Source: an uncultured Veillonellaceae bacterium (GTDB lineage Bacteria > Bacillota > Negativicutes > JARBTT01). Taken from it: a stretch of DNA of 64,000 nucleotides. Made by a program: the position numbers and the translations under genes. The notes under the pieces are model-generated. The model saw nothing but the letters and a program-made list of their open reading frames with translations, did not search any database and was not told the DNA's origin. The DNA lies in the NCBI GenBank assembly GCA_963805085.1, contig CAWDTA010000002.1:128001-192000 (forward strand), written 5' to 3'. Positions 11,876 through 58,475 of this stretch are shown here, in pieces (positions within the stretch are counted from its first letter, which is position 1; every line of letters starts with the position of its first letter).

Positions 11876-11900
11876 ATTCTACAAATATACCTTATTTCCT
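11876..11900 (-). promoter_or_regulatory. Sigma-H-like promoter upstream of lptD
   Basis: Minus strand gaAGGA-N17-GAAT (AGGAaataaggtatatttgtaGAAT). Confidence 0.6.
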
Positions 11901-12000
11901 TCCCTAAAACTATCGGTAATATGTAGAAAACCACAAAGTTCGCAAAATTGTTATCTTTTTTCTGCGTCTTTGTGGTCTCTTAATTTAAAATACTGATATT

Positions 12001-12924
12001 TTATGAAGCCTGCGCTTGAACACCGTGGACAACATTCTCTAATTTAGTTTGAATATACAATTGGGCACCTTCGTCAATTTTGGCACTTTTACCTTTGACA
12101 AATACACCACCGACGATTCCAACAGGTCCTAGTATAGCCAAGCCTGCTACCGAAGCACCAGCAGCCATCGTTATAGATTGTGTTTCTTTTTTCGATTTTT
12201 CACCTAAGAATGTAGTTATCGTGGAACCATCAATGGCTTTTATTGATGTAAAGTCTATTTCAAGCTTTGCATCACGACCAAAGTTTTGCGCTTGTGATAC
12301 TTTAGTCACTTGTCCAATGCCATCAGCACCTTTGGCAAGCACCAAAACACCATCCACCAATACATCTTCAGCTACTTGATAGGTAACAACATCACCAATC
12401 CTTGCTGTTTTGCTATCAATCGTTGAAGTTAACTTAATTTTAACCAATGTATCAGCAGGAACAACTTTATCCGCGACAATAACCGTTCCATTAGCAAAAG
12501 CTAACTTGGCTAATTTATTAATCCGCTCATTGTAGGCACCTGTTTGGGAAATGCCATCAATTAATCCTTCTAATTTTTCAATACGTTCTTTTACCGGTAG
12601 ACTCGTAACTTTATGGTTGAGCTCCCACTCTATACCATTTATTTTGGTTAAAATAGACGGAGCACTAGCAGAACTATCAAAAAATCCATTATATAAACTA
12701 TCAGCTCTTGTTACAACTGCCCCGCTAGCGGCAGTACCATATAAATCAGTTTCTAACTTTGAAATACGCTCAAGTAATGACCCTGTTTGATCATTGCCAT
12801 ATAATGTTTTTTCCACTGCAGAAACTTTATCAATCAGTGTATTCTCTGGTGCCACTTGTGCGGAAACTATCGTTGTGAAAATAAACATGCATACAATTGC
12901 TAGTGATATTGCCTTACGAAACAT
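12001..12924 (-). CDS. Conserved secreted hypothetical protein (repeated R/K-I..LE helical units; C-terminal beta domain with a Gly/Ala-rich hairpin)
   Basis: Signal peptide, RBS AGGGGG, 307 aa, co-oriented with the cluster. Confidence 0.75.
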   Translation of the reverse strand: MFRKAISLAIVCMFIFTTIVSAQVAPENTLIDKVSAVEKTLYGNDQTGSLLERISKLETDLYGTAASGAVVTRADSLYNGFFDSSASAPSILTKINGIEWELNHKVTSLPVKERIEKLEGLIDGISQTGAYNERINKLAKLAFANGTVIVADKVVPADTLVKIKLTSTIDSKTARIGDVVTYQVAEDVLVDGVLVLAKGADGIGQVTKVSQAQNFGRDAKLEIDFTSIKAIDGSTITTFLGEKSKKETQSITMAAGASVAGLAILGPVGIVGGVFVKGKSAKIDEGAQLYIQTKLENVVHGVQAQAS

Positions 12925-12968
12925 ATATTTAAATCCCCCTTAAACTCCACAATACTTTTTATATTAAA

Positions 12969-12993
12969 ATTCTAAGTTTATTTACAAAATCCT
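12969..12993 (-). promoter_or_regulatory. Sigma-H-like promoter
   Basis: gcAGGAttttgtaaataaacttaGAAT, 17-nt spacer, about 45 nt before ATG 12924. Confidence 0.6.
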
Positions 12994-13039
12994 GCTAAAT
13001 AACAAAAAGAAAAGCAGGACATTTGATAAAATATCCTGC

Positions 13040-13282
13040 TAGATTGTAAACATACTATGGACAGATAGGCCGCGGGCAGGCGAGAAGCACCCATCTGCGT
13101 CGTTGCAGCAAGGTGCTGCTCCTCGACGTACGAAAGTACGACTCCTTCGCAACTCCTTGCTACGCCTAGCATCTGAACGCTTCTCGCCAACCGGCAACCT
13201 ATCTTCGCACTAGTTTAGAAGTGGTACGAATTTAGATTGTTTTTATTATTAATATAAATATTTTTATTTGGTCGACAGTCTG
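13040..13282. mobile_element. MITE-like non-autonomous insertion with a GC-rich internal hairpin
   Basis: Flanked by 26-bp direct repeats (13014-13039 and 13283-13308, 23/26 identical); imperfect terminal IRs TAGATTGTAAAC / GTCGACAGTCTG; a partial second copy lies at ~19685-19778. Confidence 0.6.
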
Positions 13283-13417
13283 GCAGGACATTTCATAAAA
13301 AATCCTGTAAAAACTATAGATAATATAATATTGTAGATGATTTGCAACAAAAATAACAAGTCAGCAAGAGACGAATCTCAGACTAGTACTAATGTGAAAA
13401 TCGCAATGAAGGCTTCA

Positions 13418-13855
13418 TCAAATCTTCACATCGATTTGTGCAGATACCCCAACACCTTGTACTCTATTAAAGCTCGTTGGATTTTTACTGTCGATTGGAA
13501 TTAAAGCTTTTATTCTAAATTGGTCACCACTAAAATTGCCTTCGATTTGTAGTACTGCCTGTGTTTCATCGACTGCACTTTGTGGTCCAGTAATTTGTGC
13601 TGCCCCAGTATATGTACCACTACCAACTACAATAATTGGCACCACTTTTGTTGTATAATCACTGCTCACCGAATGTTTCGCTGTCAAAGTATTGATAAAG
13701 TTATTTAACGGCGTAGCAAATTTATCTACTAAAATTGCAATACCGCCAACTTTTAAAATACTACCTAGGCTAAAAGCTTGCGTTGTCTGTACTGCAACCG
13801 TTGAAACAACACTAAATGCAATCATTGATGCAATCACAGTTTTTTTCACATTCAT
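13418..13855 (-). CDS. Conserved small secreted hypothetical protein
   Basis: Signal peptide (TQA/FSL), RBS AGGAGG, beta-rich C-terminus. Confidence 0.8.
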   Translation of the reverse strand: MNVKKTVIASMIAFSVVSTVAVQTTQAFSLGSILKVGGIAILVDKFATPLNNFINTLTAKHSVSSDYTTKVVPIIVVGSGTYTGAAQITGPQSAVDETQAVLQIEGNFSGDQFRIKALIPIDSKNPTSFNRVQGVGVSAQIDVKI

Positions 13856-13901
13856 ACTGAGATACCTCCTAAACTATACTATATGTACTGTATATTCTTT
13901 G

Positions 13902-13926
13902 ATTCGACATGATAAAGTAAAACCCT
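13902..13926 (-). promoter_or_regulatory. Sigma-H-like promoter (AGGG variant)
   Basis: gaAGGGttttactttatcatgtcGAAT, 17-nt spacer. Confidence 0.5.
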
Positions 13927-13965
13927 TCCAAAACAAATTAAGTAAATTCTTCCTTTTACAGACAA

Positions 13966-13998
13966 AAAAATGCTTCTGTCATAAACAGAAGCATTTTT
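13966..13998 (-). terminator. Intrinsic terminator after ompM (14012..15295)
   Basis: AAAAATGCTTCTGT / ACAGAAGCATTTTT hairpin; gives a U-tract on the minus strand. Confidence 0.8.
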
Positions 13999-14011
13999 AA
14001 TAAATCGAAAA

Positions 14012-15295: not shown

Positions 15296-15363
15296 GATAA
15301 AAATCCCCCTTAAAATAAATATATTTTTTTGTGAGCCTTTACTTTAAGGTGAGAACGAATTTT

Positions 15364-15383
15364 AGAGTATCCACGTTTCCTCT
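15364..15383 (-). promoter_or_regulatory. Conserved ompM leader stem-loop, copy 1
   Basis: mRNA AGAG-GAAACGUGGAUA-CUCU, about 70 nt upstream of ATG; same motif at 17020 and 19037. Confidence 0.6.
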
Positions 15384-15486
15384 TCAACTTTTCCCGCCTA
15401 TTTAGTTCCAGCTCTATATAAGATATACTTTTTGGTAAAGTATATACTCATATCACGCTTAAAAATAATAAAGATTTAACGAAAAC

Positions 15487-15515
15487 TTAATAAATAGTTA
15501 ACAACTATTTATTAA
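15487..15515. promoter_or_regulatory. Perfect 13-bp AT-rich palindrome just downstream of the ompM promoter (candidate operator)
   Basis: TTAATAAATAGTT-aac-AACTATTTATTAA. Confidence 0.5.
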
Positions 15516-15530
15516 TTCCTCACTGATATG

Positions 15531-15559
15531 ATAATACCACTTTCTCTCATGGAAAACAA
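15531..15559 (-). promoter_or_regulatory. Sigma-A-like promoter of ompM (14012..15295)
   Basis: TTGTTT-N17-TATTAT with an extended -10 TG. Confidence 0.5.
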
Positions 15560-15589
15560 TACCTAAATTTAAATTAAATTTTTCAAAAT

Positions 15590-15622
15590 AAAAGACCTTC
15601 TGTTTTCACAGAAGGTCTTTTT
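15590..15622 (-). terminator. Intrinsic terminator after ompM (15636..16943)
   Basis: AAAAGACCTTCTGT / ACAGAAGGTCTTTT hairpin. Confidence 0.8.
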
Positions 15623-15635
15623 ACTAAGTTTTAGC

Positions 15636-16943: not shown

Positions 16944-17019
16944 GAGAAAATCCCCCTTAAAATAAATATTTTTTGAGCTTAAACTTTTCGGGGAAGATAT
17001 TCAAATAAAAGTTAATTAC

Positions 17020-17039
17020 CGAGTTTCCATGTTTCCTCG
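17020..17039 (-). promoter_or_regulatory. Conserved ompM leader stem-loop, copy 2
   Basis: mRNA CGAG-GAAACAUGGAAA-CUCG, within a longer stem (GGAAGAUA / UAUCUUCC). Confidence 0.6.
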
Positions 17040-17065
17040 TAAACTACCTTTATCTTCCTGTCCTC

Positions 17066-17118
17066 CACAATTATGTAACGCTCTTGTACATGATTCTACA
17101 TGATGTTACATAATTGTG
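17066..17118. repeat. Perfect 14-bp inverted repeat in the ompM leader
   Basis: CACAATTATGTAAC ... GTTACATAATTGTG. Confidence 0.65.
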
Positions 17119-17270
17119 CAAGCAAATAACTGGAAGAATCATTATAATCTTGTTAATTTTCTGTTAATTTCTCATTAAATTTGAAAATAAATTAGAAAAA
17201 TCTTTTTATCATAAGTATAACTGATTTTCACACTTGGAATTTATAATTAATTTTTATAATTAAATTTAAT

Positions 17271-17681: not shown

Positions 17682-17720
17682 AGCTCACCTTCATCATTTT
17701 ATGTATATAGCTCTTTATAC

Positions 17721-17749: not shown

Positions 17750-17750
17750 C

Positions 17751-17818: not shown

Positions 17819-18943
17819 TTAGAATTTTACGTTTAAAGTAGCTGCAGTACGATTTTGTTGTTTATCGCCAGCTTGGTTTTTGAAATCTTGGTATTGAAGA
17901 GTTAATGCTGTATTTTCAGCAACATCTTTTGTATATTTGTATTCCATACCTTTGAAACCTTCATTTAAGAAAGATACATCATTGACTCCAGTAAGACCAG
18001 AGTAGCTTGTGAATGCACCAGCTTCAACATCTTTATAAGTTGCAGATAAACCAAGTTTATTGGATTTTACGCCGTAAGCAATCGCTTTGGCACCAGAATT
18101 GTTTTCTTTGTTATATTCTGCATTTACACTGATATCTTTTGTTAAGCCAACAGAAGTATTTACACCGTAGAATTCTTTATCATTGCCTGTTGTTACATCA
18201 GCTTTCATATAGTTTAAATTGAAAATACCAGCTTGTAGCTCAGCACCGTATAAACGTTCTTTTGCACTAACTTGGTTACCAGCGAATAATTTTACGCTGC
18301 CAATGTTAGATTCAATACCATTGATCGTGTCATCAATGATCATACCAGTACCTACTTTTAAGTCTTGACGACCAATTGCGTTTTCTGCACCAAATGCATT
18401 AAAACCTACATTTGCAGTGTCTAATTTAATACCAGTAGATTCTCCGTCATAAGCGATATCACCACTAGATAAACGAGTGTTGAATGTTAAATCTTGATTG
18501 ATTTTACCAGTAACACCAATACGTGCTCTAAAATCAGTATTATCACTGCCGTTATCAGTAGCACCATAACGAAGACGTGCATCACCAGTAATTTTTGCGC
18601 GTTCTTGTTCAGCTTTTACTTCATCAACTGCGATACCCATGTCTTTTAATTCGCTAGAAAATTCTCTTGCTAATTTTTCTACTGCTAATTTTTGTTCGCC
18701 ATTTAAGTCTTTGTTCATTGCTTTTGCTACGATTTGAGCCATTTCATAACGAGTGATCGTTTTGTCACCTTTGAAAGTGCCATCGCCGTAACCATCAACG
18801 ATACCGTCTTGTGCAAGTACGTTTACTGCATCATATGCCCAATGACCTTTTTGCACATCAGCGAATGGATTTGCAAATACAGGAACTGCAACTGCTAATG
18901 TTAACGCTGTTGTAATCGCTACTTTTAATAAATTCTTTTTCAT
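17819..18943 (-). CDS. ompM: Divergent OmpM-like SLH-domain porin
   Basis: Signal peptide, SLH (FADV..GHWA, GYGDGTFKG...ITRYEMA), shorter beta-barrel ending in F. Confidence 0.85.
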   Translation of the reverse strand: MKKNLLKVAITTALTLAVAVPVFANPFADVQKGHWAYDAVNVLAQDGIVDGYGDGTFKGDKTITRYEMAQIVAKAMNKDLNGEQKLAVEKLAREFSSELKDMGIAVDEVKAEQERAKITGDARLRYGATDNGSDNTDFRARIGVTGKINQDLTFNTRLSSGDIAYDGESTGIKLDTANVGFNAFGAENAIGRQDLKVGTGMIIDDTINGIESNIGSVKLFAGNQVSAKERLYGAELQAGIFNLNYMKADVTTGNDKEFYGVNTSVGLTKDISVNAEYNKENNSGAKAIAYGVKSNKLGLSATYKDVEAGAFTSYSGLTGVNDVSFLNEGFKGMEYKYTKDVAENTALTLQYQDFKNQAGDKQQNRTAATLNVKF

Positions 18944-19036
18944 TTTGTGGAAATCCCCCTTGAATAATTTTTATATTTTTAGCTTGGCCTAATGCCAACA
19001 TACAAGGGTGGACATTTGATTTTCGCTAGCTTTCAC

Positions 19037-19056
19037 TGAGTATCCACGTTTCCTCA
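19037..19056 (-). promoter_or_regulatory. Conserved ompM leader stem-loop, copy 3
   Basis: mRNA UGAG-GAAACGUGGAUA-CUCA. Confidence 0.6.
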
Positions 19057-19242
19057 AGCAATCGCTACAATTATCTTATGTTTACCACTTGTTGTCCCTA
19101 CAGCTTTTTGTAGGTATGTACTAAAAATTTCAAGGTAGGTTTTCATTATGTTGGAGATATGTGGGAACCATATGTGGGAGACGAACGACCAGTCAGTCAT
19201 TCATTCGGAAGCGAACAATAAAATTGTTTCATTTGCTTCATG

Positions 19243-19665
19243 TTTACATAATTCTATAAACATTTTCTTTTTCCTGCTTTTAAATTCGTGTAATTTTTTC
19301 CATTGATCCTTGGATAACTAAAAGCAAATCATTATAAAATTAATTTTTAAGCATTGGTTTTATATTTACATAATTCTATAAAACTTGTCTTTTTCCTGCC
19401 GGCAAACTTGTGTAATGTTTTCCATCTAGATTTAAACATCCATCGGTCAATCATTGTAAAATGATTTCTTTAAGAATTCATTTTACGTTTACATAATTCT
19501 ATAAACATTTTCTTTTTCCTGCTTGTATATCTGTGTAATATTTTCCATAAACCACTGATTACCTAAGGATTAAGTATTTAAAACCAACTTTTAAGCATTA
19601 ATTTTATATTTACATAATTCTATATTTACGACGATTCTCCTTCTTTAAGTTCATGGTAATATACG
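19243..19665 (-). repeat. Four tandem ~122-bp units, each carrying a sigma-H-like promoter
   Basis: TTTACATAATTCTATA at 19243, 19365, 19488 and 19609; each unit has minus-strand AGGA-N17-GAAT. Confidence 0.85.
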
Positions 19666-22961: not shown

Positions 22962-23663
22962 TTATTCCGGTTGGACAACGACTTGTTTACCTGATACTGG
23001 CGTATCACTTAGAAATAGTGTCAATGTTTTGCCGCGTAGCGTATTACTATCTTGCACAGCGACTGCATTGCCTGAAAGAACAATCTTACCTCGCTGATCT
23101 TCGCCACCATAATAAGTTGCAACATCTCCTGTTGCATCTAAATTTTTAGTTTGACTAACAATATGCGCATTTCCTGTTCCTACGGCACGATTTTCTGCCA
23201 TATAAGCTTCTAACTTATCAGCGGTCATCGTTCCATCTGGATTGACGATACGCGCATTAGAATTAATTATAGCATATTGTCTGTCACTAAAATAGTCCAC
23301 TTGTGGACCATATAACGTACTTTCAGCTTTTTTCATTATAACATTGCCGACAGCAACGATATGGTTTTCATCAAGTGATGTTACGCTATCAGAAGTCATA
23401 TCAAGATCTTCTTTTACCAAATGAGCACCACCAAGTACTTTACCCTCTTTGGTTTTGGAATTATATTCTGCTCTCGCCCCAGTTACAATAGCATTTTCTT
23501 GCAACATTTTTACCGAACCCGTAGCTTTCATTAACCCTGTCGAGGAATCGTACTCAATGACATCACCAGAAATGTCTACTGGTTTATCGCTTGCTGCATA
23601 TATCGTGCTTGTCATTGCTAGACAAATCATGCCAGTCAATGCAAATTTTTTTAACTTCATCAT
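22962..23663 (-). CDS. lptA: LptA/OstA family periplasmic protein
   Basis: Signal peptide, repeated beta-jellyroll strands, located between lptC and lptB. Confidence 0.8.
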   Translation of the reverse strand: MMKLKKFALTGMICLAMTSTIYAASDKPVDISGDVIEYDSSTGLMKATGSVKMLQENAIVTGARAEYNSKTKEGKVLGGAHLVKEDLDMTSDSVTSLDENHIVAVGNVIMKKAESTLYGPQVDYFSDRQYAIINSNARIVNPDGTMTADKLEAYMAENRAVGTGNAHIVSQTKNLDATGDVATYYGGEDQRGKIVLSGNAVAVQDSNTLRGKTLTLFLSDTPVSGKQVVVQPE

Positions 23664-28437: not shown

Positions 28438-30912
28438 TTATTTCTTATTTTTCAAGCTTTCGCTGATTAGGTTAATAAAGTTATCATATCCAGCTTGGAA
28501 ACTAATTTCGATGCTTAGAATATAAATTGGCAATTGCCGATTAGAATGGATAATTTCTGCTGGTATTTTCACCGCATCTTTATCCGTAATAATGATTGCC
28601 TCTGCCCCTTGCTCCATTGCTTTGTCCAAAACAGCTTGCATTTCTGCCATTGTATAGTCATGATGATCAGGAAAACGGACACTATCGATTACTACTGCAC
28701 CAATATCGCTAATTGTCTGCTCAAATGATGCTGGGTTTCCAATTGCCGATACCGCAATTACTTGCTTATTTTTCAAGGTACTAACATCAATACTCTTGCT
28801 AGGAGTATCCTTATACCAATCAGCAATTTCAATAAAGCAACGTGGTTTATGAATACTTTCAACGACAAGGGCATGGTCATTATACCGAGCTACCGTTTCT
28901 TTTATGGTTTCACAAGCTTTTTTATCCGCTTGGTCAACCTTTGTTAACAGACAAACATCGGCACGATTTAAATGTGAAAGTGGCTCTCGTAACGTGCCCC
29001 GTGGTAACATGTAGTTATTGCCAAAGACGTTAATCGCATCTACTAGCAGGATATCTAAGTCTCGGAGTAAACGCCAATGCTGATACCCATCATCTAAGAT
29101 AACAACTTGGGCATTTAATTTCTCCACAGCATATTTACCGGTCTCTGCCCGATCTGCCCCAATTAGTACTGGTACTTTAGGCAAATTCTTCGCAAGTAAA
29201 AACGCTTCATCGCCAGCTTCCGCCGCTGACATATAAATTTTCTTGCCATCAGACACAACGCCTACTTTACCTTTCCATTTCGCCCGATAACCACGGTTTA
29301 AAATAACCACTCGATACCCCATATCACGAATTGCAGCTGCAAGTCGCTGTGCCGTTGGCGTTTTTCCTGTCCCGCCAACGGTAATATTCCCCAAACTGAT
29401 CACATGACAATCTAATCTGTATTGTTTAAAAATTCCCGAGCGATATAGTGCTATTGTCATTTCAATCAATTGACAATACACAAAAGAAAAAGCATACAAA
29501 ATACTCAAAAAAACATTAGGAAAAAACCCATTTTCGTCACCATGCACCAGTTTATATAAATAGGTCTGAAAGTTTTCGATCTGGCGTAGTGTTCTCTTCG
29601 GGCTTCTTGCTTTTTTTTGTTCATAAGTTCCTAACATTTCTCTTAGCAGTACTGCACTTTTTCTTGAAGCCCCTCGGTTTTCTTTTACGATTGCCAGCGT
29701 CTCTGCTTCCATTTCTAGTCTTAACTCAGGATTATGAAAAAGTTTTAAAATATTAGAACCAAGCTCAGCGGCATCATGAGCCGTAATGCAAGCATTACGG
29801 TTTGAAAATAAAGCATAGGTATCTTTAAAATTAAACATATTGGGTCCAACAATAATCGCTTTGCCATGTGCCGCTGGTTCTAATATATTATGCCCGCCAT
29901 GTGATACTAAACTACCACCAACATAAATAACATCACCAATACTATAGACTTTTCCGAGTTCACCAATCGTATCTAAAAGAACAACGTCATGTCCTGTTTC
30001 TACGCTTTTATTTAACGCCGTCCGTGTTTTCACTTTCATACCAAAAATTTTAGCAGTTTCGGTAATTTCACCAACTCGTAAAATATCACGAGGAGCAATA
30101 ATCAATTTTGCTGTAGGTATTTCCTTCTTTAGCTGACGAAATGCTTCTAGAATCAAATTTTCTTCGCCTTTATGCGTACTACCAGCAAGCAAAATCGCCC
30201 CTGAACCATTAAGTCCCATTTCATCAAGCAATTTTTGTTTTTCTTCTGGAGCTACATCCGTATAAGTTTGATCAAATTTCGTATTCCCAGTTATCGTAAC
30301 TAAATCAGGATTTGCCCCGAGTTTTATAATATATTTTGCATCTATGGGTGATTGCATACAAAATTTTTTCACAGTACCAATCATATCTTTTAAAACACCA
30401 CGCAAATGATGGTAGCGATTTACGCTTTTGTCACTAATTCTACCATTTACCATCATAACTGGAATATGATATTTACGTGCTGCTTTTAAGAAATTTGGCC
30501 ATAACTCTGTTTCTACTGGTAAAAACACACTTGGCATTACTTTTTTGACTACGCCACTACTAAGCCATGGCAAATCAAGCGGAAAATAAATAATACTATC
30601 CGCATCTTTGACGATTCTATTTGCCATTTCATAGCCATTATTCGTAACCACTGACACTAAAATCGGTTTTTTAGGAAATTCTAAACGAAATTCCTTGATT
30701 AACGGACTGGCAGCAACAATTTCACCGACAGAAGCTGCGTGTATCCAGATACACCCCTTATTTGCTACTGGTTCTAAGGCATCTTTATGTAAGAAACCAA
30801 AGCTTTGCCTCAGCCTCTCGACAAATCCTTTTTCACGCATAGCTCGTACCATAAATACCGGTATCGCTAATATTACCAGTATGATCGCCACTATGTTGTA
30901 TATAATCTGCAT
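28438..30912 (-). CDS. waaA-lpxK: Fused Kdo transferase (WaaA/KdtA) and lipid A 4'-kinase (LpxK)
   Basis: N-half: WIHAASVGE, ETELWPN, GGHN.LEP. C-half: GNITVGGTGKTP, RGY, GDE, LDDG.QH. One uninterrupted 824-aa ORF. Confidence 0.9.
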   Translation of the reverse strand: MQIIYNIVAIILVILAIPVFMVRAMREKGFVERLRQSFGFLHKDALEPVANKGCIWIHAASVGEIVAASPLIKEFRLEFPKKPILVSVVTNNGYEMANRIVKDADSIIYFPLDLPWLSSGVVKKVMPSVFLPVETELWPNFLKAARKYHIPVMMVNGRISDKSVNRYHHLRGVLKDMIGTVKKFCMQSPIDAKYIIKLGANPDLVTITGNTKFDQTYTDVAPEEKQKLLDEMGLNGSGAILLAGSTHKGEENLILEAFRQLKKEIPTAKLIIAPRDILRVGEITETAKIFGMKVKTRTALNKSVETGHDVVLLDTIGELGKVYSIGDVIYVGGSLVSHGGHNILEPAAHGKAIIVGPNMFNFKDTYALFSNRNACITAHDAAELGSNILKLFHNPELRLEMEAETLAIVKENRGASRKSAVLLREMLGTYEQKKARSPKRTLRQIENFQTYLYKLVHGDENGFFPNVFLSILYAFSFVYCQLIEMTIALYRSGIFKQYRLDCHVISLGNITVGGTGKTPTAQRLAAAIRDMGYRVVILNRGYRAKWKGKVGVVSDGKKIYMSAAEAGDEAFLLAKNLPKVPVLIGADRAETGKYAVEKLNAQVVILDDGYQHWRLLRDLDILLVDAINVFGNNYMLPRGTLREPLSHLNRADVCLLTKVDQADKKACETIKETVARYNDHALVVESIHKPRCFIEIADWYKDTPSKSIDVSTLKNKQVIAVSAIGNPASFEQTISDIGAVVIDSVRFPDHHDYTMAEMQAVLDKAMEQGAEAIIITDKDAVKIPAEIIHSNRQLPIYILSIEISFQAGYDNFINLISESLKNKK

Positions 30913-37112: not shown

Positions 37113-37137
37113 ATTCTACAAAAAATTAGCTCATCCT
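37113..37137 (-). promoter_or_regulatory. Sigma-H-like promoter upstream of lpxC
   Basis: gcAGGAtgagctaattttttgtaGAAT, 17-nt spacer. Confidence 0.6.
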
Positions 37138-49041: not shown

Positions 49042-49680
49042 CTACCAATGTTTCATCAGATTTGATAACATTCCACGAATCCTTTTAATCCCCCGTTTCT
49101 GCAAACGATAGATATGCGTGGTGCTAAGTTCTAAATTTTCAGCAACCTCTTTTACATCTTGATCTTTCATATACACACCTCGCAAAACTAGTTGCTCCTT
49201 TTCCGGCAACCTTTGTATTGCATGATTTAGTTGGTCCACTAAAAAACTTTGTTCGACCTGATTTGACACTGCTGGTGCCAAATCGATAATATTCTCACCT
49301 AAGGTCGTCACATTGTCCCCATTATACATTGGTCTGTCAATATAAGTCAACTCAGCACCTCCTTCCTTTTGTAGGAAGTTAAGCATCCGCCCACGAATAC
49401 GATGCAGTGCATATAGACTAAACGCTACGCTACGCTCATGGTTATAATTTTCTACGGCTTCAATCAGACCAACCGTTCCTTCTTGCACGATATCCATGAC
49501 ATTATCGTTTACTTTTAATTGCATAACAGCTTTAAATACAAGAGGTTGATAACTTTCAATTAAAACTTGTCGGGCTTTAATATCTTGATTTATTTTATAC
49601 TCTCGCCAAAGCTTAGCTTCTTCTTCTATATTTAACATTTTTATTTTTTTTAGTTCTTTTAAATATTCACTAAGTTCCAT
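49042..49680 (-). CDS. Sigma-70 family RNA polymerase sigma factor (group 3-like, regions 1.2/2/4)
   Basis: YL.E......L..EEE, D.VQEG.VGLIEAV..Y, F..YA..RIRG, C-terminal HTH (EVAENLELS); likely start MELS at 49680. Confidence 0.9.
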   Translation of the reverse strand: MELSEYLKELKKIKMLNIEEEAKLWREYKINQDIKARQVLIESYQPLVFKAVMQLKVNDNVMDIVQEGTVGLIEAVENYNHERSVAFSLYALHRIRGRMLNFLQKEGGAELTYIDRPMYNGDNVTTLGENIIDLAPAVSNQVEQSFLVDQLNHAIQRLPEKEQLVLRGVYMKDQDVKEVAENLELSTTHIYRLQKRGIKRIRGMLSNLMKHW

Positions 49681-49695
49681 TTGTATCAACCCCAA

Positions 49696-52600
49696 TTAAA
49701 ACTTAATTCTAGCTTCAAGCCCAATTGTAGTATTATGGTTTTGGTCAACATCCCCGTTCAAACTCAATCTATTATTGAAGTCGTAACGAATACCCAATTT
49801 ATACGCTTGATAATCTACCCCTGCTGTATATGTTAACATTGTTTTATCATTGATATATTTACCAATTTCAACATTATATACTTCACGACTTGAGCCATTA
49901 TTGTTAGCACTACTTGCTGAAAGAGTATCCCGAACTACATTAAATTCATCTACACCAATTGCTTGACGAAGTATACTCTCTATTTCACTTAAAAAGCTCA
50001 TTTGTAAACCAATATTAAGCATTGATGTAAGTTCGTCGCGCCCCATAGAAGAATCATTATTATCTTTGCTGTTATAATGACTCCTTAAAGTCAATAATGA
50101 TAAAATTTCTTGTTCATTCATCTCCGGATCAGATGTTAACTTAAAATTCATTGCCTCTACTGGTCCATTAACATTCAAATAGACTTTCGTTTTTTCTAAT
50201 CTTGTATCTGCCTCTACATGAAGACTTGGGAACAAAGATCCAACTTGATTAAAGTAGGCATTTGCCTCTCTAACTTTAAACGATGTCTTCAGATAACTAA
50301 TCGTACCACGCGTAGAATGAATTTCTCCAGAAGTCCGTGGGTGTAGTGTGCTACCAGTAAAATTAGCATGCCCTTCTAGCCAAATATCATATAGGAAAGA
50401 ATTATATAAACGAACTTTTTTACCAACATTCACATCTACATCTAATCGTATATGTGGCATTTCTGTTTCACTAGCAGCAATCATTGGAATATCTACAGTG
50501 CAATTTTCAAAATTCAAATTGCCTGCAATCTTCGGTACTCCATTATCATCAATCAGGGTGAACATACCTTCTAAAGGACCTGTATAGTATTTATTTACAA
50601 TATCAAGTTTATCTAAATTCAGGGCAAAATTATAATCCACAAGCCCTTGGGCTGTGATGCGACTAGTTCCCGAAATTTTATAAGATCCATTTCCCATTAC
50701 ACCTTCGAATGTTTTCAAATCTATTTTATCATTTAAAAATTCAATATCAAGTGCCATTTTTTGGACAGGCTTTGCTAATTGCTTAAATTTAACAGCCCCA
50801 TTTGTAACAGTTACTGCCCCATTAAGGAGTGGATTATCAAGTGTACCACTAATTGTAATACCACCTTTAGTCGGACCAATTGCCCAATCAACTTGTTTGG
50901 TTAAAAGTGGCAAAATGCTAAGATCTGCTTGATCTAACGATACTTTTAAATCCATTTGATTTTTAACGTCAGCATGTTCTCTTTCACCCTTGACAATTGC
51001 TGCCAAAGGAACAATACCGTAAGCACTCGCTTTATACTGGCCCTTATTTAAAAGTATTTGCTGGACATTAATAATACCATCTTGCAATATAAACATACCA
51101 TAGAGTGAATCAAAGGTTGCCGTGCCTACACCGCCACCTTGAATATCTATTGAGACATCTGCCTTTGGATTGTCAAGCATGCCGGTTATTTGCGACCCAA
51201 AATTTAGAACTCCTTTAGTATCAACATCAAGATCTGCTAAATTTGTCAATAAACCAGCTTCAATATTTTGACCAGCGACTTCAACATTAAGTTCACCGGC
51301 TAAATCCATCTTACCTTGTGCAACTAATCTCCCGTTGCCTTGCACAGCATTAAAACGAGTAATTGTAACTACTTTATCATCTAAAGACACATCTAAATCT
51401 ACATTATCTAATTTATATTTTTTAAGCGACCCCTCTTTTAAATTACCCAATAAACGTACTTTAGGATTGTCTGTTGTACCTTCTAAATGAATATTACCAT
51501 TGAGTGTCCCATCAATCCAATTTTGATCAACATTTAAAATCTTTAAAATGGAAGCTAATTGACCATCTTTTACATCTAAATTACCTTGTATTTGTTTTGT
51601 CTTAATATTTGCATTTGCCGATAAACTAAAGCTGCTTTTCTCTTGATTAAAACTAAACGAGGTGAGATCAACGACATCATTGCCATAATTTATTTTACCA
51701 TCTACTTTTTCCAAATTCCGGCCGTTGAAAGCGACACTATCGGCAGTTAATTGTCCATTAAATTTTGGTGCATCTACATTTCCCTGTAATTTACCAATAA
51801 ATTTTGCTTGACCAGATACTGGATATGGTAGTTGTAAACGAAGCTTTTGGACATCAATATCGTCAGCAACAATATCAAAATCAAGATCTTCATTTGCTGT
51901 TAAAACGCCCTTTAATTTCACATTTAAACTAGGTGAACTAACAGAAAAATCTTTTATTTCGGTTTGCCCATTTTTCCGTTGATACTTACCTTGTGCCTTT
52001 GTTAATAATATTCCTCTAAAACTGCCTTGGTTGAAGCTAATTTGCCCATCAGCATTGATATTATCCAGCGTCCCCGTAAGTACAACATCGTTGTCAACGT
52101 TACCTGTAAGAGCTTCACCCGGTAATAATAATTTCACAATATTTTCAGCTCTTGCCTGTCTTGATGAAACTTTTATATTGAGTGATTTATCAGCTGTCAA
52201 ACCAATAGTACCACTTATTTCATGCTTTGAGACGCCATCTAACAAATCAAGTTTTTCAATATTTACTTGATTTTTATCTGCACTTAAACTACCTTGCGCA
52301 ACTTTAAATGGTTGATAGAAGGCACTGCCGTTTATCGCGGAAAAATTACTTTTGACTTGTGGCTGGTTAGTAGTTCCCGTTACTTGACCAGAAAAATCAG
52401 CGAATCCACTTAAAATAAGATTTTGATCTATACTTGCTAATTGCTCAAGTCCAACTGCAGAACCATAAAAGTTAATAGCCAATTGATTACCATTTATAGA
52501 TCCATCGGCAGTAATTTTTCCCTGCGGTAATCCAATTGTTAAATAATCAACTGTAATATCTTCACCTTGTTTGTAAAAGCTAGTATCCATATTTGCAAAA

Positions 52601-53982
52601 GCAATCCCTTGATAAGTCCCGTTGACAATACCCGCATTACCATAGACAGCAGTCATATGATTTAAATCTAAACCTTTTCCGACAATAGCTACATCAGCTT
52701 TTGCATTACCTGAAATCTGCGGAATATAATCACCTAAACTTGTTAAAGAAATATTGTCGGCCTTTGCTTGTAAGTTATATTCTTCAGTAATCGTATTGAT
52801 TTGACCATGAGCATCGACGGTTCCGCCCAGAATTGAAGCCGTAAAATGATCAACAAGCACCATATTGTTAACGAATTTCAATTGTGCTTTTACATTATGA
52901 ATGTCGTAATCATATAAAGTTCCTTCTGCAACATTAAACTCACCACTAATGATTGGTTCACTCATTTTACCGGTAATATTTGCTTTAAAAGCGATCGCAC
53001 CTTTCAGTGGAAAACTAGCTAAAACCTTACTTGCATCAAAACCTTTGGAGCTCACCTGTAAATTTAACACAGGTTCTACAACATCTAAATTAGTTGTACC
53101 TCGCAGGACAATTGGCTGCTCAGCTATCTTACCGCGACTAAATACACGGATTTCTTTCTCATTAAAAAGGATTAAACCGTCAATTTTATCAATGATTGTA
53201 CCTTGCGCCTCTACACTAACGCCCGTAACAACTGTTTCACCATTAAATTCATACTCACCATTTACTTTTAACATAGTAACATCGAATTTCTTCAAATTGC
53301 CTTTTAGCACTTTAATCGCCATTTTTTCTGGTAGAAATTCTAAATAATTTTCTAAATTAAAATCTTCCGCTTTAATACTAAGTGCTTGGTGCTCACCGCC
53401 TATGGTTCCCGAAGTTATTAAACTACCACCTTTGTGCTTTAATGAAATATTTAAAGCAATGGAAGGTTGACTAACAAAATCTAGTGTACCATTAATATCT
53501 TCTAACGTTGCCTCTTTTCCTTCAGCACTGAGATTTGCTGTTGCATTTTTGAGCTCTACTTTTCCTTTAAATTCATTGGAAGCATTTTGTTCACCTGATA
53601 AAAGATCCATATAGTTCCATCTACCATCTTTTTGCTGGACTATATTGACTTCGGAATCATTTACTATCACTTTATCAATCGCCTGAATGACAGATTTATC
53701 TCGTATGATATCAAGTAGGCTAAAAGCCACCTCTACATTTTTTGCAGTTGCTAAAACCTCACCATTCTTAGTATAAATAGTAATTCCATCTGCTGAAATT
53801 TCTGTTGGTGATTTTATCTGTATGGAATTCACTTTTACATCCGTATTTAAAATATTCGTGATTTCAGTTGATAGAACTCCCGCTGTTGTCGTCATAAAAG
53901 ATTGACTTTTTATCCACAATAAGCTAATTCCAACAATCATAATCAGTGTTAATGCAATTATAATCAATGCTTTACGCCACAT
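49696..53982 (-). CDS. tamB: TamB/AsmA-like bridge protein (DUF490 C-terminus)
   Basis: N-terminal TM, ~1400 aa of repeated beta-taco strands, L.SDP.M....ILSLL motif, position in the cluster. Confidence 0.88.
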   Translation of the reverse strand: MWRKALIIIALTLIMIVGISLLWIKSQSFMTTTAGVLSTEITNILNTDVKVNSIQIKSPTEISADGITIYTKNGEVLATAKNVEVAFSLLDIIRDKSVIQAIDKVIVNDSEVNIVQQKDGRWNYMDLLSGEQNASNEFKGKVELKNATANLSAEGKEATLEDINGTLDFVSQPSIALNISLKHKGGSLITSGTIGGEHQALSIKAEDFNLENYLEFLPEKMAIKVLKGNLKKFDVTMLKVNGEYEFNGETVVTGVSVEAQGTIIDKIDGLILFNEKEIRVFSRGKIAEQPIVLRGTTNLDVVEPVLNLQVSSKGFDASKVLASFPLKGAIAFKANITGKMSEPIISGEFNVAEGTLYDYDIHNVKAQLKFVNNMVLVDHFTASILGGTVDAHGQINTITEEYNLQAKADNISLTSLGDYIPQISGNAKADVAIVGKGLDLNHMTAVYGNAGIVNGTYQGIAFANMDTSFYKQGEDITVDYLTIGLPQGKITADGSINGNQLAINFYGSAVGLEQLASIDQNLILSGFADFSGQVTGTTNQPQVKSNFSAINGSAFYQPFKVAQGSLSADKNQVNIEKLDLLDGVSKHEISGTIGLTADKSLNIKVSSRQARAENIVKLLLPGEALTGNVDNDVVLTGTLDNINADGQISFNQGSFRGILLTKAQGKYQRKNGQTEIKDFSVSSPSLNVKLKGVLTANEDLDFDIVADDIDVQKLRLQLPYPVSGQAKFIGKLQGNVDAPKFNGQLTADSVAFNGRNLEKVDGKINYGNDVVDLTSFSFNQEKSSFSLSANANIKTKQIQGNLDVKDGQLASILKILNVDQNWIDGTLNGNIHLEGTTDNPKVRLLGNLKEGSLKKYKLDNVDLDVSLDDKVVTITRFNAVQGNGRLVAQGKMDLAGELNVEVAGQNIEAGLLTNLADLDVDTKGVLNFGSQITGMLDNPKADVSIDIQGGGVGTATFDSLYGMFILQDGIINVQQILLNKGQYKASAYGIVPLAAIVKGEREHADVKNQMDLKVSLDQADLSILPLLTKQVDWAIGPTKGGITISGTLDNPLLNGAVTVTNGAVKFKQLAKPVQKMALDIEFLNDKIDLKTFEGVMGNGSYKISGTSRITAQGLVDYNFALNLDKLDIVNKYYTGPLEGMFTLIDDNGVPKIAGNLNFENCTVDIPMIAASETEMPHIRLDVDVNVGKKVRLYNSFLYDIWLEGHANFTGSTLHPRTSGEIHSTRGTISYLKTSFKVREANAYFNQVGSLFPSLHVEADTRLEKTKVYLNVNGPVEAMNFKLTSDPEMNEQEILSLLTLRSHYNSKDNNDSSMGRDELTSMLNIGLQMSFLSEIESILRQAIGVDEFNVVRDTLSASSANNNGSSREVYNVEIGKYINDKTMLTYTAGVDYQAYKLGIRYDFNNRLSLNGDVDQNHNTTIGLEARIKF

Positions 53983-54030
53983 AAATCTATCCTCCAAGTC
54001 AAAATACCTGTAACCATATATCTTACTCTA

Positions 54031-54056
54031 TTTCGACGTCAGCATTCACACTTCCT
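54031..54056 (-). promoter_or_regulatory. Imperfect sigma-H-like promoter upstream of tamB
   Basis: acAGGA-N18-GAAA(T) (acAGGAagtgtgaatgctgacgtcGAAAt). Confidence 0.4.
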
Positions 54057-54131
54057 GTAGTAAAAATTTACTATTCGAACCAAATGCATACTAGTCTAAA
54101 CAATTGATATTTAAAATTCACTTGGATATAG

Positions 54132-54167
54132 AACGGAGCTGTCACAAAACCTTGTAACAGCTCCGTT
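54132..54167 (-). terminator. Hairpin terminator after tolC
   Basis: AACGGAGCTGT.ACAA / TTGT.ACAGCTCCGTT. Confidence 0.7.
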
Positions 54168-54179
54168 ATTAAGAAGAAA

Positions 54180-55475: not shown

Positions 55476-55501
55476 TTCTAATTTTCCTCCTACTTTTAGA
55501 G

Positions 55502-55521
55502 TTTTGACTATGCAGTCAAAA
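55502..55521. promoter_or_regulatory. Palindromic candidate operator between the tolC promoter and RBS
   Basis: TTTTGACT-atgc-AGTCAAAA. Confidence 0.55.
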
Positions 55522-55531
55522 ACTACACTTC

Positions 55532-55560
55532 ATTATATTATTTATCAAATTTAGTGTCAA
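55532..55560 (-). promoter_or_regulatory. Consensus sigma-A promoter of tolC
   Basis: TTGACA-N17-TATAAT, an exact match to the consensus. Confidence 0.8.
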
Positions 55561-55573
55561 GAACAATCCATTT

Positions 55574-56845
55574 TTAAAACGAATGACGCATACCTACAAA
55601 AGACTCTCGCCCCTCACTTTTATTGATACTATCGGTTTCTCCCACAATAAAAGTTTCTGGGGCAACTTCATATTGCGCTCTGAGTTTTACTCTTAAATCA
55701 TTTGGATCGTAAGCATCGACTGACATGCGAAATTCATTGTTTATTTTTGCATCCAAACCGACACCAGCTTTACTATCAATAAGCCCAACCCTACTTGCAA
55801 ATTTATCACTACCAGAACCAATTTGTACATTTGTTTTATTTCCTTCACCGATATCATTTACTCCTAATAAAACAAAGTCATTCGGTGAAGTATGGATTTT
55901 GATATCAGCATTGGTCTTATAATCCTCTGAACTTGCACTATAGAGTGTTTCTACACTGGTTTCTGCTTTGATATTCGACACCTGGTTCATCATACGATTG
56001 GCCTTTTCACTAACACCGCGTGCATTACGAAGCGTAGTTTTTAAATTTTCTGCGGTTTCTGGATCAGTCACAAAACCTTCAATTGAAACGGCCATATTTT
56101 CTACGCGTTTACTGGTAGCATTCAAATTTGCAATTGCTTCTCGCAAATCCGTCGCCGTTTGGCCATTGTTATCTACTGTAGCAAGCATATGGTCAACACG
56201 GCCAGCGGCATTCATCATACTACCCGACATAAATTTCAGATTCGTCACCATCGCCTTTACATCTTGTTCATTATTGACTGCCATCCGTGCCATGACAGCG
56301 CTCATTCGATTTAAATTCTCAGTAAGTTCTTTTACACTCACAGCAGAATCAATCAGTGCATTTTGTACACGTTCATCACCAAAGACTGTATTTAATGATT
56401 GCACTAATTTTTGGATGTCCAGCAGTACACTATCCGCTGTCACCAATAAGCGATCTATGCCTTGCTGATCTCTTCCAGTAATAGCATCGCCAGGTTTTAA
56501 AAATCCCTTTGTTTCAGCACCTGGAGATATACTGATATATTTTTCTCCCATTAATCCGTCTGCACCAATCCCAACAATTGCAGTATCGGGGATTTTAACC
56601 CCAGGATTGATTAGAAGTCTGACTTTAGCTCCATCAGGTTCTGCATGAACGTCATCTACTTTGCCAATATCTACACCAGCATAACGAACAAGATTACCAG
56701 GTTTCAATCCATTGACTTCATTAAATAGAACATCAACAGGATAGCCTTTATCACCAACACCAATTCCACCGAGATGAACGATGATATAGGTTAACAGAGC
56801 CAATCCTAAGATTGTAAATGCGCCTACTTTAGCTTCTGTTGTCAT
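55574..56845 (-). CDS. mlaD: MlaD/MCE protein with a long helical region and C-terminal beta strands
   Basis: EAKVGAF TM, GL..G..V.YAGV.IG.V, GLMGEKYISI.PG MCE motifs; C-terminal F. Confidence 0.9.
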   Translation of the reverse strand: MTTEAKVGAFTILGLALLTYIIVHLGGIGVGDKGYPVDVLFNEVNGLKPGNLVRYAGVDIGKVDDVHAEPDGAKVRLLINPGVKIPDTAIVGIGADGLMGEKYISISPGAETKGFLKPGDAITGRDQQGIDRLLVTADSVLLDIQKLVQSLNTVFGDERVQNALIDSAVSVKELTENLNRMSAVMARMAVNNEQDVKAMVTNLKFMSGSMMNAAGRVDHMLATVDNNGQTATDLREAIANLNATSKRVENMAVSIEGFVTDPETAENLKTTLRNARGVSEKANRMMNQVSNIKAETSVETLYSASSEDYKTNADIKIHTSPNDFVLLGVNDIGEGNKTNVQIGSGSDKFASRVGLIDSKAGVGLDAKINNEFRMSVDAYDPNDLRVKLRAQYEVAPETFIVGETDSINKSEGRESFVGMRHSF

Positions 56846-57591
56846 CTATGAACCTCCTTTGTCATACCTTTGGAGCCATTAATAAAATCTTGCACAACTG
56901 AATTATTAGAATTTTTGATATCCTCAACATTGCCAATCTGAGTAATTTCTCCCTCATGAATCATGGCAATACGATCAGCAATCGCAAAGGCACTTTCCAT
57001 ATGGTGCGTTACCACGACCGAGGTGACCCCTAATACTTTTTGCATGCTTACAATCAAACTATCAATCTTCGCTGTCATAATAGGATCCAGTCCAGCACTT
57101 GGCTCGTCATACAAAACAATGTCGGGTTCAAAGGCGATTGCTCTAGCTAAGCTTACCCGTTTTTTCATACCACCGGAGAGTTCATTGGGTAGATGATGTT
57201 CATAGCCTTCTAAATCAACTAATTTTAACTTTTCTTGGACCTTTTTATTTATTTCAGACTCACTTAATTTGGTATGTTCACGAAGACCAAACGCTACATT
57301 GTCACCAACGCTCATCGAATCAAACAACGCCGAATACTGAAATACCATTCCCATCTGAAGTCTAATTTTATCTAACTGGTCTTCACGTAATTTTGATATT
57401 TCAGTCCCCGCTACCCAAATTTGACCACTCGTCGGGCGAAGCAAGCCAATCATCAACCGTAATAACGTGCTCTTACCAGAGCCACTTGCACCGATAATGG
57501 CAAGTACTTCACCCTTTTTCACTTCTAAATTAATATTTTTTAGTATTTTTTCTTTTTTGAACTCCATATGTACATTCACTAATTTAATCAC
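56842..57591 (-). CDS. mlaF: MlaF ABC ATPase
   Basis: GASGSGKS, FQYSALFDSM.V..NVAF.LRE, LSGGMKKRV. Confidence 0.92.
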   Translation of the reverse strand: MIKLVNVHMEFKKEKILKNINLEVKKGEVLAIIGASGSGKSTLLRLMIGLLRPTSGQIWVAGTEISKLREDQLDKIRLQMGMVFQYSALFDSMSVGDNVAFGLREHTKLSESEINKKVQEKLKLVDLEGYEHHLPNELSGGMKKRVSLARAIAFEPDIVLYDEPSAGLDPIMTAKIDSLIVSMQKVLGVTSVVVTHHMESAFAIADRIAMIHEGEITQIGNVEDIKNSNNSVVQDFINGSKGMTKEVHR

Positions 57592-57603
57592 ACCAACACA
57601 CCT

Positions 57604-58377
57604 CTAGCGATACAAAATCAAGGATAGAAAACAATTTAAAATAAAAATAATAATAATTGAACTAACTACCGATCCTGTTGTCGCTTTCCCTACTCCAACT
57701 GCTCCATTTCGTGCATTCAATCCTTGATAGCACCCAATAATTGCAATAATTGCCCCAAAAAAGACTGATTTTATTACACCACCAGTAACATCATGCACGA
57801 CCATAAAATTATTTATCGACTGCATATAGGTTACCGAGTTAATCCCAGAATAAAAAGTAGCAACCAAATAACCACCAAAAGTACCAATAACATCGGCAAA
57901 TACAACCAATAACGGCAACGTAATCATACAAGCAATTAGCCTTGGTACAACCAAATAACCAACTGGATTGGTTGCCATAACCTTTAAAGCATCAATTTGT
58001 TCTGTTACTTTCATCGTGCTAATTTCTGCTGTAATAGCAGCACCAACACGCCCAGCAGCCACAACTCCAGTTAAGACCGGAGCAAGCTCACGTGCCATAG
58101 AAATTGCCACGATGCCACCAACCGTAGATTGCGCGCCATATTTGATAAATTCATGCGCCGTTTGCAAGGTAATAACCATCCCTGTAAATAGAATGGTAAG
58201 TGTTACAATCGGTAATGAATCAACACCTAAATGTGACATTTGCACGATGATGTGTTTTATATTAGGCGGATGTTTTAATTGGCAAATTGTTTCATAAATA
58301 AGCATCATCACTGCACCGAAGTCTTCAAGAAAACTTAGTACACCGCGGCCAATTTTTTCCAGGTAACCAACCATCAT
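57604..58377 (-). CDS. mlaE: MlaE permease
   Basis: RELAPVL, AGRVGAAITAEI.TMKVTEQIDAL, GVGKATT..VV; likely start 58377. Confidence 0.95.
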   Translation of the reverse strand: MMVGYLEKIGRGVLSFLEDFGAVMMLIYETICQLKHPPNIKHIIVQMSHLGVDSLPIVTLTILFTGMVITLQTAHEFIKYGAQSTVGGIVAISMARELAPVLTGVVAAGRVGAAITAEISTMKVTEQIDALKVMATNPVGYLVVPRLIACMITLPLLVVFADVIGTFGGYLVATFYSGINSVTYMQSINNFMVVHDVTGGVIKSVFFGAIIAIIGCYQGLNARNGAVGVGKATTGSVVSSIIIIFILNCFLSLILYR

Positions 58378-58450
58378 TGCATTTTCCCCCATATATATAA
58401 ATACTAAGATATACAATAGTACATATTAGTTTACTATTTTTTAGAATTAT

Positions 58451-58475
58451 ATTCAATACTTTTCGTCAATTCCCT
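58451..58475 (-). promoter_or_regulatory. Sigma-H-like promoter upstream of mlaE (AGGG variant)
   Basis: gcAGGGaattgacgaaaagtattGAAT, 17-nt spacer. Confidence 0.5.

Follow-up and report, generated by a model that had tools for sequence, protein, structure and literature searches.

We studied a stretch of 64,000 nt of contig CAWDTA010000002.1 (assembly GCA_963805085.1, positions 128,001–192,000), referred to below as the window, which carries a large outer-membrane (OM) gene cluster of the kind that is typical of Negativicutes; almost all its genes are on the − strand. Several OM genes of this cluster are preceded by the motif AGGR-N17-GAAT. It is likely that these sites are SigH-class promoters, read by RNA polymerase with the SigH orthologue of the source genome (coded G000). 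SigH fits because of the spacer specificity of the motif, the coupling of AGGR to the G of GAAT, the consensus, a true SigH gene, classic SigH targets in the genome, conservation in relatives and mapped transcription start sites in Sporomusa. The relatives were 40 genomes of the same class (G001–G040) from 25 GTDB families, of which only G001 is congeneric with G000.

In total, the window contains 11 exact matches to AGGR-N17-GAAT, every one on the − strand, whereas shuffled windows contained 3.97 ± 2.22 matches (largest 10) and none of the 100 shuffles reached 11. All other spacers from 8 to 27 nt gave only 0–4 matches each on this strand. Four of the 11 matches are copies within a 122-bp tandem repeat. 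Hence, the independent count is eight sites, consisting of six loci and two matches in coding sequence. The six loci are all intergenic, with GAAT at 35–86 nt before the start codon, except for an array upstream of an ompM gene (307–673 nt). The two coding matches, inside a glycosyltransferase gene (match 3135–3159, gene 2238–3311) and inside flgI (match 62783–62807, gene 62606–63712), were taken as chance because they lie in coding sequence and score below 12 on the weight matrix introduced below. An earlier note on this DNA had listed nine motif sites, and all nine were found exactly where it had placed them.

The motif also defines a promoter class across the genome. Our gene calls on G000 (4.21 Mb, 5 contigs, 83% complete) comprised 3713 genes with 2696 upstream regions of at most 300 nt. 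On the sense strand of these regions, AGGR-Nx-GAAT occurred 76 times with a 17-nt spacer and 36 times with an 18-nt spacer, and 9–24 times with other spacers. The antisense strand gave 22 matches (against about 7), compared with the 76 sense matches. A single dispersed repeat family accounts for 13 of the 76. After removal of this family by mismatch count, 63 N17 matches remained (Poisson 2e-19), the other spacers averaging 15.7 with at most 24, and N18 stood at 36 (Poisson 8e-6). The sigma-A pattern TTGA[CT]-N18-TA.AAT, used as a comparison, was found 75 times at its right spacing; the AGGR-GAAT signal is equally strong. A weight matrix was built from the 63 non-redundant matches. At a score of at least 16 it found 120 intergenic and 24 coding sites in a genome of which only 15% is intergenic, a comparison that is biased in favour of the intergenic sites because the matrix was trained on G000's own intergenic matches.

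The occurrence of AGGR is tied to GAAT with its G; sigma-A −10 boxes show no such coupling. AGGR-N15-TAGAAT was found 12 times against about 1.5, and AGGR-N15-.[not A]GAAT 40 times against about 10. AGGR-N15-TA[ACT]AAT, which covers TATAAT, TAAAAT and TACAAT, was not enriched (15 against about 11). The median distance from GAAT to the start codon was 68 nt. The extended consensus reads G-C-AGGA, a T-rich run, and then R-K-M-GAAT-A/T; in the columns of 74 N17 matches, G (64%) and C (48%) precede AGGA and T (63–72%) follows it. The SigH consensus of Bacillus subtilis, quoted in the earlier note, is RNAGGAWWW-N11-12-RNNGAAT. The motif fits this consensus, as had been claimed, with AGGA and GAAT cores 17–18 nt apart, R at the second position ahead of AGGA and a run rich in T/A behind AGGA.

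At a matrix score of at least 16, 115 genes were targets, and the 110 outside the window were scanned against Pfam. They include dnaG with sigA, spoVS, minC, the ribosome-hibernation gene hpf and a class II fumarase. Furthermore, four histidine kinases, a single-domain response regulator, a Spo0B-type domain, parA, mreB, HU, cdaA and rex are among them. The B. subtilis counterparts of several such targets are SigH-dependent. Three of the targets outside the window relate to the OM, namely a TpsA-type haemagglutinin-repeat protein, the ShlB-type transporter of this protein, and a Wzi protein. Exact N17 sites were present in four of the 37 upstream regions of the window versus 57 of the 2659 elsewhere (odds ratio 5.5, p 0.009). 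The window rises to 6/37 when the 307-amino-acid (aa) gene, hidden by a spurious open reading frame (ORF) call, and the ompM array, which lies beyond 300 nt, are included manually, a leniency that the rest of the genome did not receive. The earlier note had named enrichment over the intergenic background as a check; the motif is enriched by spacer, by orientation and in the cluster.

The dispersed repeat that was removed from these counts is about 100 nt long and has 30 copies. Twenty-six of them lie on the + strand of G000:C2:1404504-1584394 (180 kb, loci L028–L041), in steps of 0.35–3 kb, with three further copies on C4 and one on C5. Each copy contains a 10-bp inverted repeat, the 3′ arm of which carries a perfect SigH-type motif, GCAGGAG...GAGAAT. 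The genes 3′ of the copies encode CAT-family and GNAT acetyltransferases, an amidohydrolase, AAA_15/21 ATPases, a CDP-alcohol transferase and many products without family. The whole resembles an array of cassettes in which promoter and terminator form a portable module.

Promoter sites in the cluster and in relatives

In order of transcription, the cluster starts with flgI, flgJ, a gene for a SpoIVB-domain protein, mlaE-mlaF-mlaD, tolC and tamB. A gene for a sigma factor of the sigma-70 family (hereafter the cluster sigma), bamA and two OmpH genes follow tamB. Next are lpxD, lpxC-fabZ-lpxA-lpxI-lpxB, msbA, a kdtA-lpxK fusion, kdsB/A/D/C and lptC/A/B/FG. A DUF3084 gene is next, followed by three SLH-domain OmpM genes, between which a YqgF-like gene lies, and by two small family-less genes. 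The cluster ends with a 500-aa gene, named lptD in the earlier note, and with heptose and glycosyltransferase genes. The kdtA-lpxK fusion is a single 824-aa ORF (28438–30912, − strand), with KdtA at residues 2–427 and LpxK at residues 475–785; in the available part of the Sporomusa data (PMC12456013), the gene at the equivalent place is listed as tetraacyldisaccharide 4′-kinase. The motif sites of the window described below are all on the − strand.

The site of the LptD-like gene (gene 10287–11789) is an exact match at 11876–11900 with a matrix score of 22.2. Its GAAT stands 86 nt ahead of the ATG, and its AGGA has no TTG in front of it. Profile searches of the 500-aa product gave no family match in Pfam or NCBIfam. 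Its name rests on synteny with a Sporomusa gene annotated as LptD and on the weak likeness of its N-terminal residues 71–204 to the product of an LptA-like gene (22962–23663). From its sequence the product would be a very divergent LptD, if it is one. In relatives, a G[C/A]AGGAAA...GTAGAATA site was found 50–186 nt before the lptD start in 12 of 30 loci, two loci having less than 40 nt of upstream DNA. Two more loci have the site about 435 nt before the start, which brings the count to 14/30 loci in 10 families. At these orthologous sites the spacer sequence is scrambled and no TTG precedes AGGA; two lineages read GCGAAT or GAGAAT.

Two family-less genes have exact matches as well. The promoter of the 307-aa gene (12001–12924) lies at 12969–12993 with GAAT 44 nt before the ATG, and its matrix score of 24.5 is the highest in the window. 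A GCAGGAT(T/A)TT...GAAT site occupies the matching place, 1139–1293 nt upstream of lptD, in 6 of 30 relatives' loci. The 145-aa gene (13418–13855) has an AGGG variant with the −10 sequence TCGAAT at 13902–13926 (score 22.1, 46 nt before the ATG). This is not a −10 box of sigma-A, because C stands at the sigma-A −11 place.

One of the OmpM genes (17819–18943) is preceded by a tandem array of units of about 122 bp (19242–19641). It contains four SigH-type promoters, all exact matches, at 19251–19275, 19373–19397, 19496–19520 and 19617–19641. The distance of the array from the gene implies a leader of about 300 nt. Rfam at the gathering threshold gave no match in the window, so this leader fits no Rfam family. 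Among the relatives, G001 and G004 each have three copies in steps of about 120 nt and G040 has one, with the nearest copy 294–329 nt from the ATG; the leader of about 300 nt is thus kept. No array was seen in G019, nor upstream in G036. One copy in G001 reads TCGAAT in place of TAGAAT, so that GAAT is kept and the A at the sigma-A −11 place is lost. All three ompM leaders on the − strand (18944–19250, 15296–15400 and 16944–17050) share an element, GAGGAAAC(G/A)TGGA(T/A)ACTC, about 80–110 nt before the ATG, and an A/T-rich stretch precedes their ribosome-binding site.

The mlaE-mlaF-mlaD genes (55574–58416) have an AGGG variant with TTGAAT as −10 sequence at 58451–58475 (score 22.8). Relatives carry GCAGGGAA...AT(T/G)GAATA in 11 of 30 loci and, with a wrong start call, in G001, which makes 12 loci in nine families. 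AGGG is kept in these orthologues, and the −10 sequence, which reads TTGAAT, TGGAAT or GGGAAT, lacks the A that sigma-A would have at −11. For tamB (49696–53997), which is followed directly by the gene of the cluster sigma, the weakened site AGGA-N18-GAAA claimed by the earlier note was located at 54031–54056. In relatives, 8 of 29 loci have the form ACAGGAAG-N18-..GAAT (N17 in two loci) no more than 35 nt from the start of tamB; three loci lacked a local alignment. G000, G001 and G004 read GAAA, and in G000 and G001 the score is below 12.

At a score of at least 14, sense sites outnumbered antisense sites by 12 to 0 for lptD (28 loci), by 9 to 0 for mlaE and by 9 to 0 for lpxC. Conservation in orthologous promoters, another check that the earlier note had put forward, was found as well: the motif recurs in up to 10 GTDB families of the class. 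This recurrence at matching places across relatives indicates a conserved link with the OM.

The lpxC promoter (37113–37137) is a hybrid, TTGCAG-N17-TAGAAT, which also fits AGGA-N17-GAAT exactly (matrix score 15.7). Relatives have TTGCnn-N17-TAnAAT in 22 of 30 loci and TAGAAT in 18 of 30; AGGR stands at the SigH −35 place in 9 of 30, and the G is replaced in four. By its sequence the lpxC promoter is essentially of the sigma-A type, SigH-compatible in some lineages. The claim that lipid A synthesis belongs to the regulon therefore holds for the motif match, and is weakened by a promoter that is mainly of the sigma-A type, with AGGR in a minority of relatives. Judged by the features of a sigma-A promoter (TTGnnn, 17 ± 1 nt, TAnnnT with A at −11), lpxC has them all, whereas the LptD-like gene, the 307-aa gene and ompM have TAGAAT as −10 sequence but no TTG at −35, so that use by sigma-A is formally possible. 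The sequences of mlaE (TTGAAT) and the 145-aa gene (TCGAAT) depart from this pattern.

Other genes of the cluster have clear sigma-A promoters, as had been noted before: TTGACA-N17-TATAAT for tolC, TTGAAT-N17-TATAAT for the OmpH gene of 156 aa, and TTGACA-N17-TACATT for the YqgF-like gene. No motif site was found upstream of bamA, and the proposed Bam arm of the regulon was not borne out. We also considered a sigma-54 reading (TGGCA...) of a 45-nt repeated promoter-like element; by eye, no −12 GC stands where sigma-54 spacing would place it. A reading of the TGTCGAA-type −10 regions as Spo0A boxes was set aside, since no Spo0A was found in G000.

SigH, the cluster sigma and competing explanations

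G000 encodes a SigH that scores 376.1 bits on TIGR02859 (cut-off 294.8) at G000:C4:119561-120157. SigH exceeds the family cut-off in 39 of the 41 genomes of the class, including those of 1.6–2.5 Mb. Of the two others, one is 84% complete, and one is 74% complete with a partial match. A presence in nearly all members would be unexpected if SigH served sporulation alone. SigH autoregulation was considered and rejected, as sigH has a TTGACT-N17-TATAAT promoter and no SigH-type site with a score of at least 12.

The earlier note had linked the regulon to sporulation. For this organism the link is doubtful. Searches with family models found no SigE, SigF or SigG in the 83%-complete assembly, and no Spo0A above the cut-off in that assembly (best 79 bits). 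SigH, spoVS and a split sigK are present, and sporulation has, from these gene contents, likely been lost. The sigK gene is split in two (model positions 2–147 and 140–225) at G000:C5:700926-704380 (L268). The insertion resembles a small skin element; it is about 2.7 kb long and encodes a 653-aa XisF/Ccr-type serine recombinase on the opposite strand.

The cluster sigma (49042–49695, − strand) has only regions 2 and 4 of the sigma-70 family (Sigma70_r2, r4). It reaches 26 bits on the SigH model, and its 23% identity to the SigH of G000 is confined to region 2, with no alignment in region 4. Its best named family matches are of the FliA/WhiG and SigF types, and it reaches only the general superfamily model TIGR02937. 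No anti-sigma gene was identified next to it; its 132-aa neighbour has no family match. In the window the gene of the cluster sigma lies between tamB and the bamA operon, and it was found in 35 of the 41 genomes. It was not found in G005, G026, G009, G030, G022 and G025, five of which have SigH above the cut-off. For Sporomusa, the available supplement of PMC12456013 lists a 'sigE'-like motif at the start site of the gene just downstream of the cluster sigma and ahead of BamA; this might be the cluster sigma's own site.

We infer that SigH, and not another sigma factor, initiates at these sites. Under this proposal, SigH holoenzyme would initiate at the LptD-like gene, the 307-aa and 145-aa genes, one ompM and mlaEFD and, from a weakened site, at tamB with the cluster sigma. 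As T or TA precedes GAAT at most OM sites, sigma-A may share some of them, giving basal expression with a SigH-dependent boost. At ompM, the four promoter copies and the long leader would add to expression strength, and tamB and the cluster sigma may form one unit, which would allow a cascade. As to timing, SigH is here probably a broad second vegetative (growth/transition) sigma factor rather than a sporulation switch, because many start sites with SigH motifs occur in growing Sporomusa and because SigH is present in nearly all genomes of the class.

Several points weigh against this proposal. The gene calls are rough and home-made, and the matrix carries the bias mentioned above. T stands at the sigma-A −12 place in five of the six loci of the window and TA in four of the six, so that sigma-A could read them. 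At any one gene the motif occurs in fewer than half of the relatives' loci. In the six genomes lacking the cluster sigma, none of 16 upstream regions of lptD, mlaE and lpxC contained it; the near-misses were one site with GAAA (score 13.4) and one exact N18 match inside lptD. Sigma factors in the Sporomusa study (PMC12456013) were assigned by motif and not by mutant. Moreover, OM biogenesis is needed in growth, which fits a transition-phase sigma factor poorly unless SigH is active in growth.

The six genomes bear on the possibility that the cluster sigma, with an overlapping AGGA/GAAT specificity, reads the OM promoters itself and makes the cluster a self-contained OM regulon. Its conservation inside the cluster, its place directly behind tamB, the promoter of which is of the same type, and the contrast between 0/16 upstream regions in genomes without it and 9–14 of 30 loci per gene where it is present all speak for this. 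The six genomes are also the most divergent (LpxC 46–53% identical), and other operon structures may explain the result, which is a hint towards the cluster sigma and no more, the counts being small and the genomes related. The cluster sigma resembles SigH in region 2 alone, and its nearest named families are others; promoters of the FliA/WhiG and SigF types differ from AGGA/GAAT. Moreover, about 110 genes outside the cluster, classic SigH targets included, have a motif of this class upstream, and therefore a second reader beside SigH is not needed. We regard this possibility as quite improbable.

Somewhat less improbable, though still unlikely, is that the sites are ordinary sigma-A promoters with TAGAAT as −10 box and a weak −35 box, in which AGGA is incidental or serves an activator. 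TAGAAT matches TATAAT in five of six positions and stands exactly 17 nt from a hexamer ending in the AG of AGGA, and the lpxC relatives keep the sigma-A pattern more often than AGGR. The available supplement of PMC12456013 likewise assigns LpxC of Sporomusa to sigA only, and OmpM and MlaE to sigA as well as sigH. Yet AGGR is enriched at its set distance with GAAT-type −10 sequences only, and the −10 sequences of mlaE in G000 and its relatives, of the 145-aa gene and of one ompM copy in G001 lack the A at −11. The lptD orthologues, moreover, keep AGGAAA without an upstream TTG, two of them with GCGAAT or GAGAAT. Chance recurrence in AT-rich intergenic DNA, inflated by tandem repetition, is refuted: one 122-bp repeat does supply four of the 11 window matches, coding sequence two, and one dispersed family 13 of the 76 genomic ones, but the 17- and 18-nt spacers remain in strong excess without that family, the sense strand dominates, and sites recur at the same place in distant relatives where the antisense count is zero. 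SigH remains the economical candidate for the reader of these sites.

Published start sites and known systems

Part of the relevant start sites has been mapped in Sporomusa sphaeroides KIAC by dRNA-seq (2,158 start sites; PMC12456013, mSystems 2025). The statements that follow refer to the available parts of that paper and its supplement. The SigH motif (AGGA/GAAT, 17–18 nt) was present at 322 of the 2,158 start sites. Motifs lay no more than 50 nt upstream of the mapped starts, including those of the corresponding OM genes. The SigH regulon was enriched in envelope biogenesis among other classes, the discussion being centred on acetogenesis, and 32 genes with the motif were stated to be orthologues of SigH targets in model Firmicutes. 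In the supplement, the sigH motif is listed for a glycosyltransferase, LptD, a hypothetical gene between LptD and OmpM and the primary start of TamB; sigA together with sigH for the top-expressed SLH/OmpM gene, the MlaE permease, an MFS gene and MreB; sigA for YqgF, another SLH gene, FabZ, LpxC, two OmpH genes (one also sigF) and TolC; and sigE for the gene before BamA. LpxA, MlaD and one SLH gene have no motif. This list almost mirrors that of the earlier note (PMC12456013).

Sporomusa belongs to the same bacterial class, and its SigH regulon has the motif and spacer described here and nearly the same OM genes. The accessible text of PMC12456013 contains no comparison among members of the class and no mention of a tandem array or of an ompM leader of about 300 nt. 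The OmpM paralogue with sigA and sigH motifs has a different position in the cluster from the array-bearing ompM of the window, and we claim no orthology between them. An mreB-type gene of G000 (G000:C2:195058-196008), 3 kb past the end of the window, has a SigH-type site of the TGTAGAAT form, in agreement with the sigA and sigH start listed for the Sporomusa rod-shape gene (PMC12456013).

The earlier note had known of no description of such a regulon. The SigH class and the start sites of OM genes are present in PMC12456013; the explicit link with the OM was not found in print, and in the main text as available the term 'outer membrane' occurs 0 times. In literature outside subscription journals, we found neither the link to the OM cluster nor the class-wide conservation, AGGG at mlaE, the ompM array or the hybrid lpxC promoter. 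The accessible parts of the Veillonella parvula OM proteome paper and of the Mla preprint do not discuss cluster promoters or sigma factors. In the literature searched there was no treatment of the regulation of the OM gene cluster in diderm Firmicutes, and no genetic or biochemical data on SigH-dependent transcription in any Negativicute. The only RNA run found for G000 was a rhizosphere metatranscriptome that contained just 0.06 of the words sampled from G000 and was available as contigs, in which start sites do not show.

SigH (Spo0H) promoters of B. subtilis and Clostridioides difficile have the same AGGA and GAAT cores 17–18 nt apart. As in the SigH class of B. subtilis, the class described here includes the sigA operon, spoVS, minC, hpf and kinase genes, and a SigH orthologue is present. 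Unlike the SigH class of monoderms, it reaches OM genes (LptD-like, Mla, TamB, OmpM, TpsA, TpsB and Wzi), which the monoderm model organisms do not have. It further differs from the model SigH systems in that the host may not sporulate and the AGGG variant is conserved at mlaE.

The earlier note had also suggested a functional analogue of the proteobacterial sigma-E (RpoE) regulon, which covers LPS transport, assembly factors of the BAM and TAM types and the control of porins. The contents of the two regulons overlap, and the analogy extends to content alone. RpoE is an extracytoplasmic function (ECF) sigma factor that is held by an anti-sigma factor, is freed by envelope stress and has a different promoter consensus. 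SigH, in contrast, is not an ECF sigma factor, no stress-sensing partner was seen, and bamA lacks a site here. In place of an RpoE-type regulon with an ECF sigma factor, an anti-sigma factor and a consensus of its own, we found a motif of the SigH type. Highly expressed surface-protein genes can have multiple tandem promoters, for example the cell-wall protein operon of Brevibacillus brevis. The ompM array is similar in having several promoters in a row and a long leader before an abundant SLH-domain surface gene. It differs in that the copies stem from a 122-bp tandem duplication and are all of the SigH type.

Meaning for the Negativicutes

The analysis proposes a concrete wiring, in which a conserved set of SigH-type promoters serves lptD, mlaE, tamB, an OmpM gene and neighbouring family-less genes. 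The 307-aa and 145-aa genes are probable members of this same envelope regulon. The four-copy tandem promoter with its long leader would be a natural module for strong expression in these bacteria. A role in the OM would also offer a reason for the persistence of SigH in nearly the whole class. With genetic tools in Veillonella parvula and start-site maps in Sporomusa, the question of SigH should be quickly tractable.

A wider reading is that SigH is the main dedicated driver of OM building throughout the Negativicutes, covering LPS insertion, lipid asymmetry, TamB and the major OmpM, that this wiring is ancestral and the reason for the retention of SigH, and that SigH stands atop a cascade through tamB and the cluster sigma. 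We consider this possible but rather doubtful. If true, the explanation of SigH retention would extend to small-genome and apparently non-sporulating lineages. The sigma factor that opens sporulation in other Firmicutes would then be tied to the building of a second membrane, which would bear on the debate about the relationship between diderm and monoderm Firmicutes.

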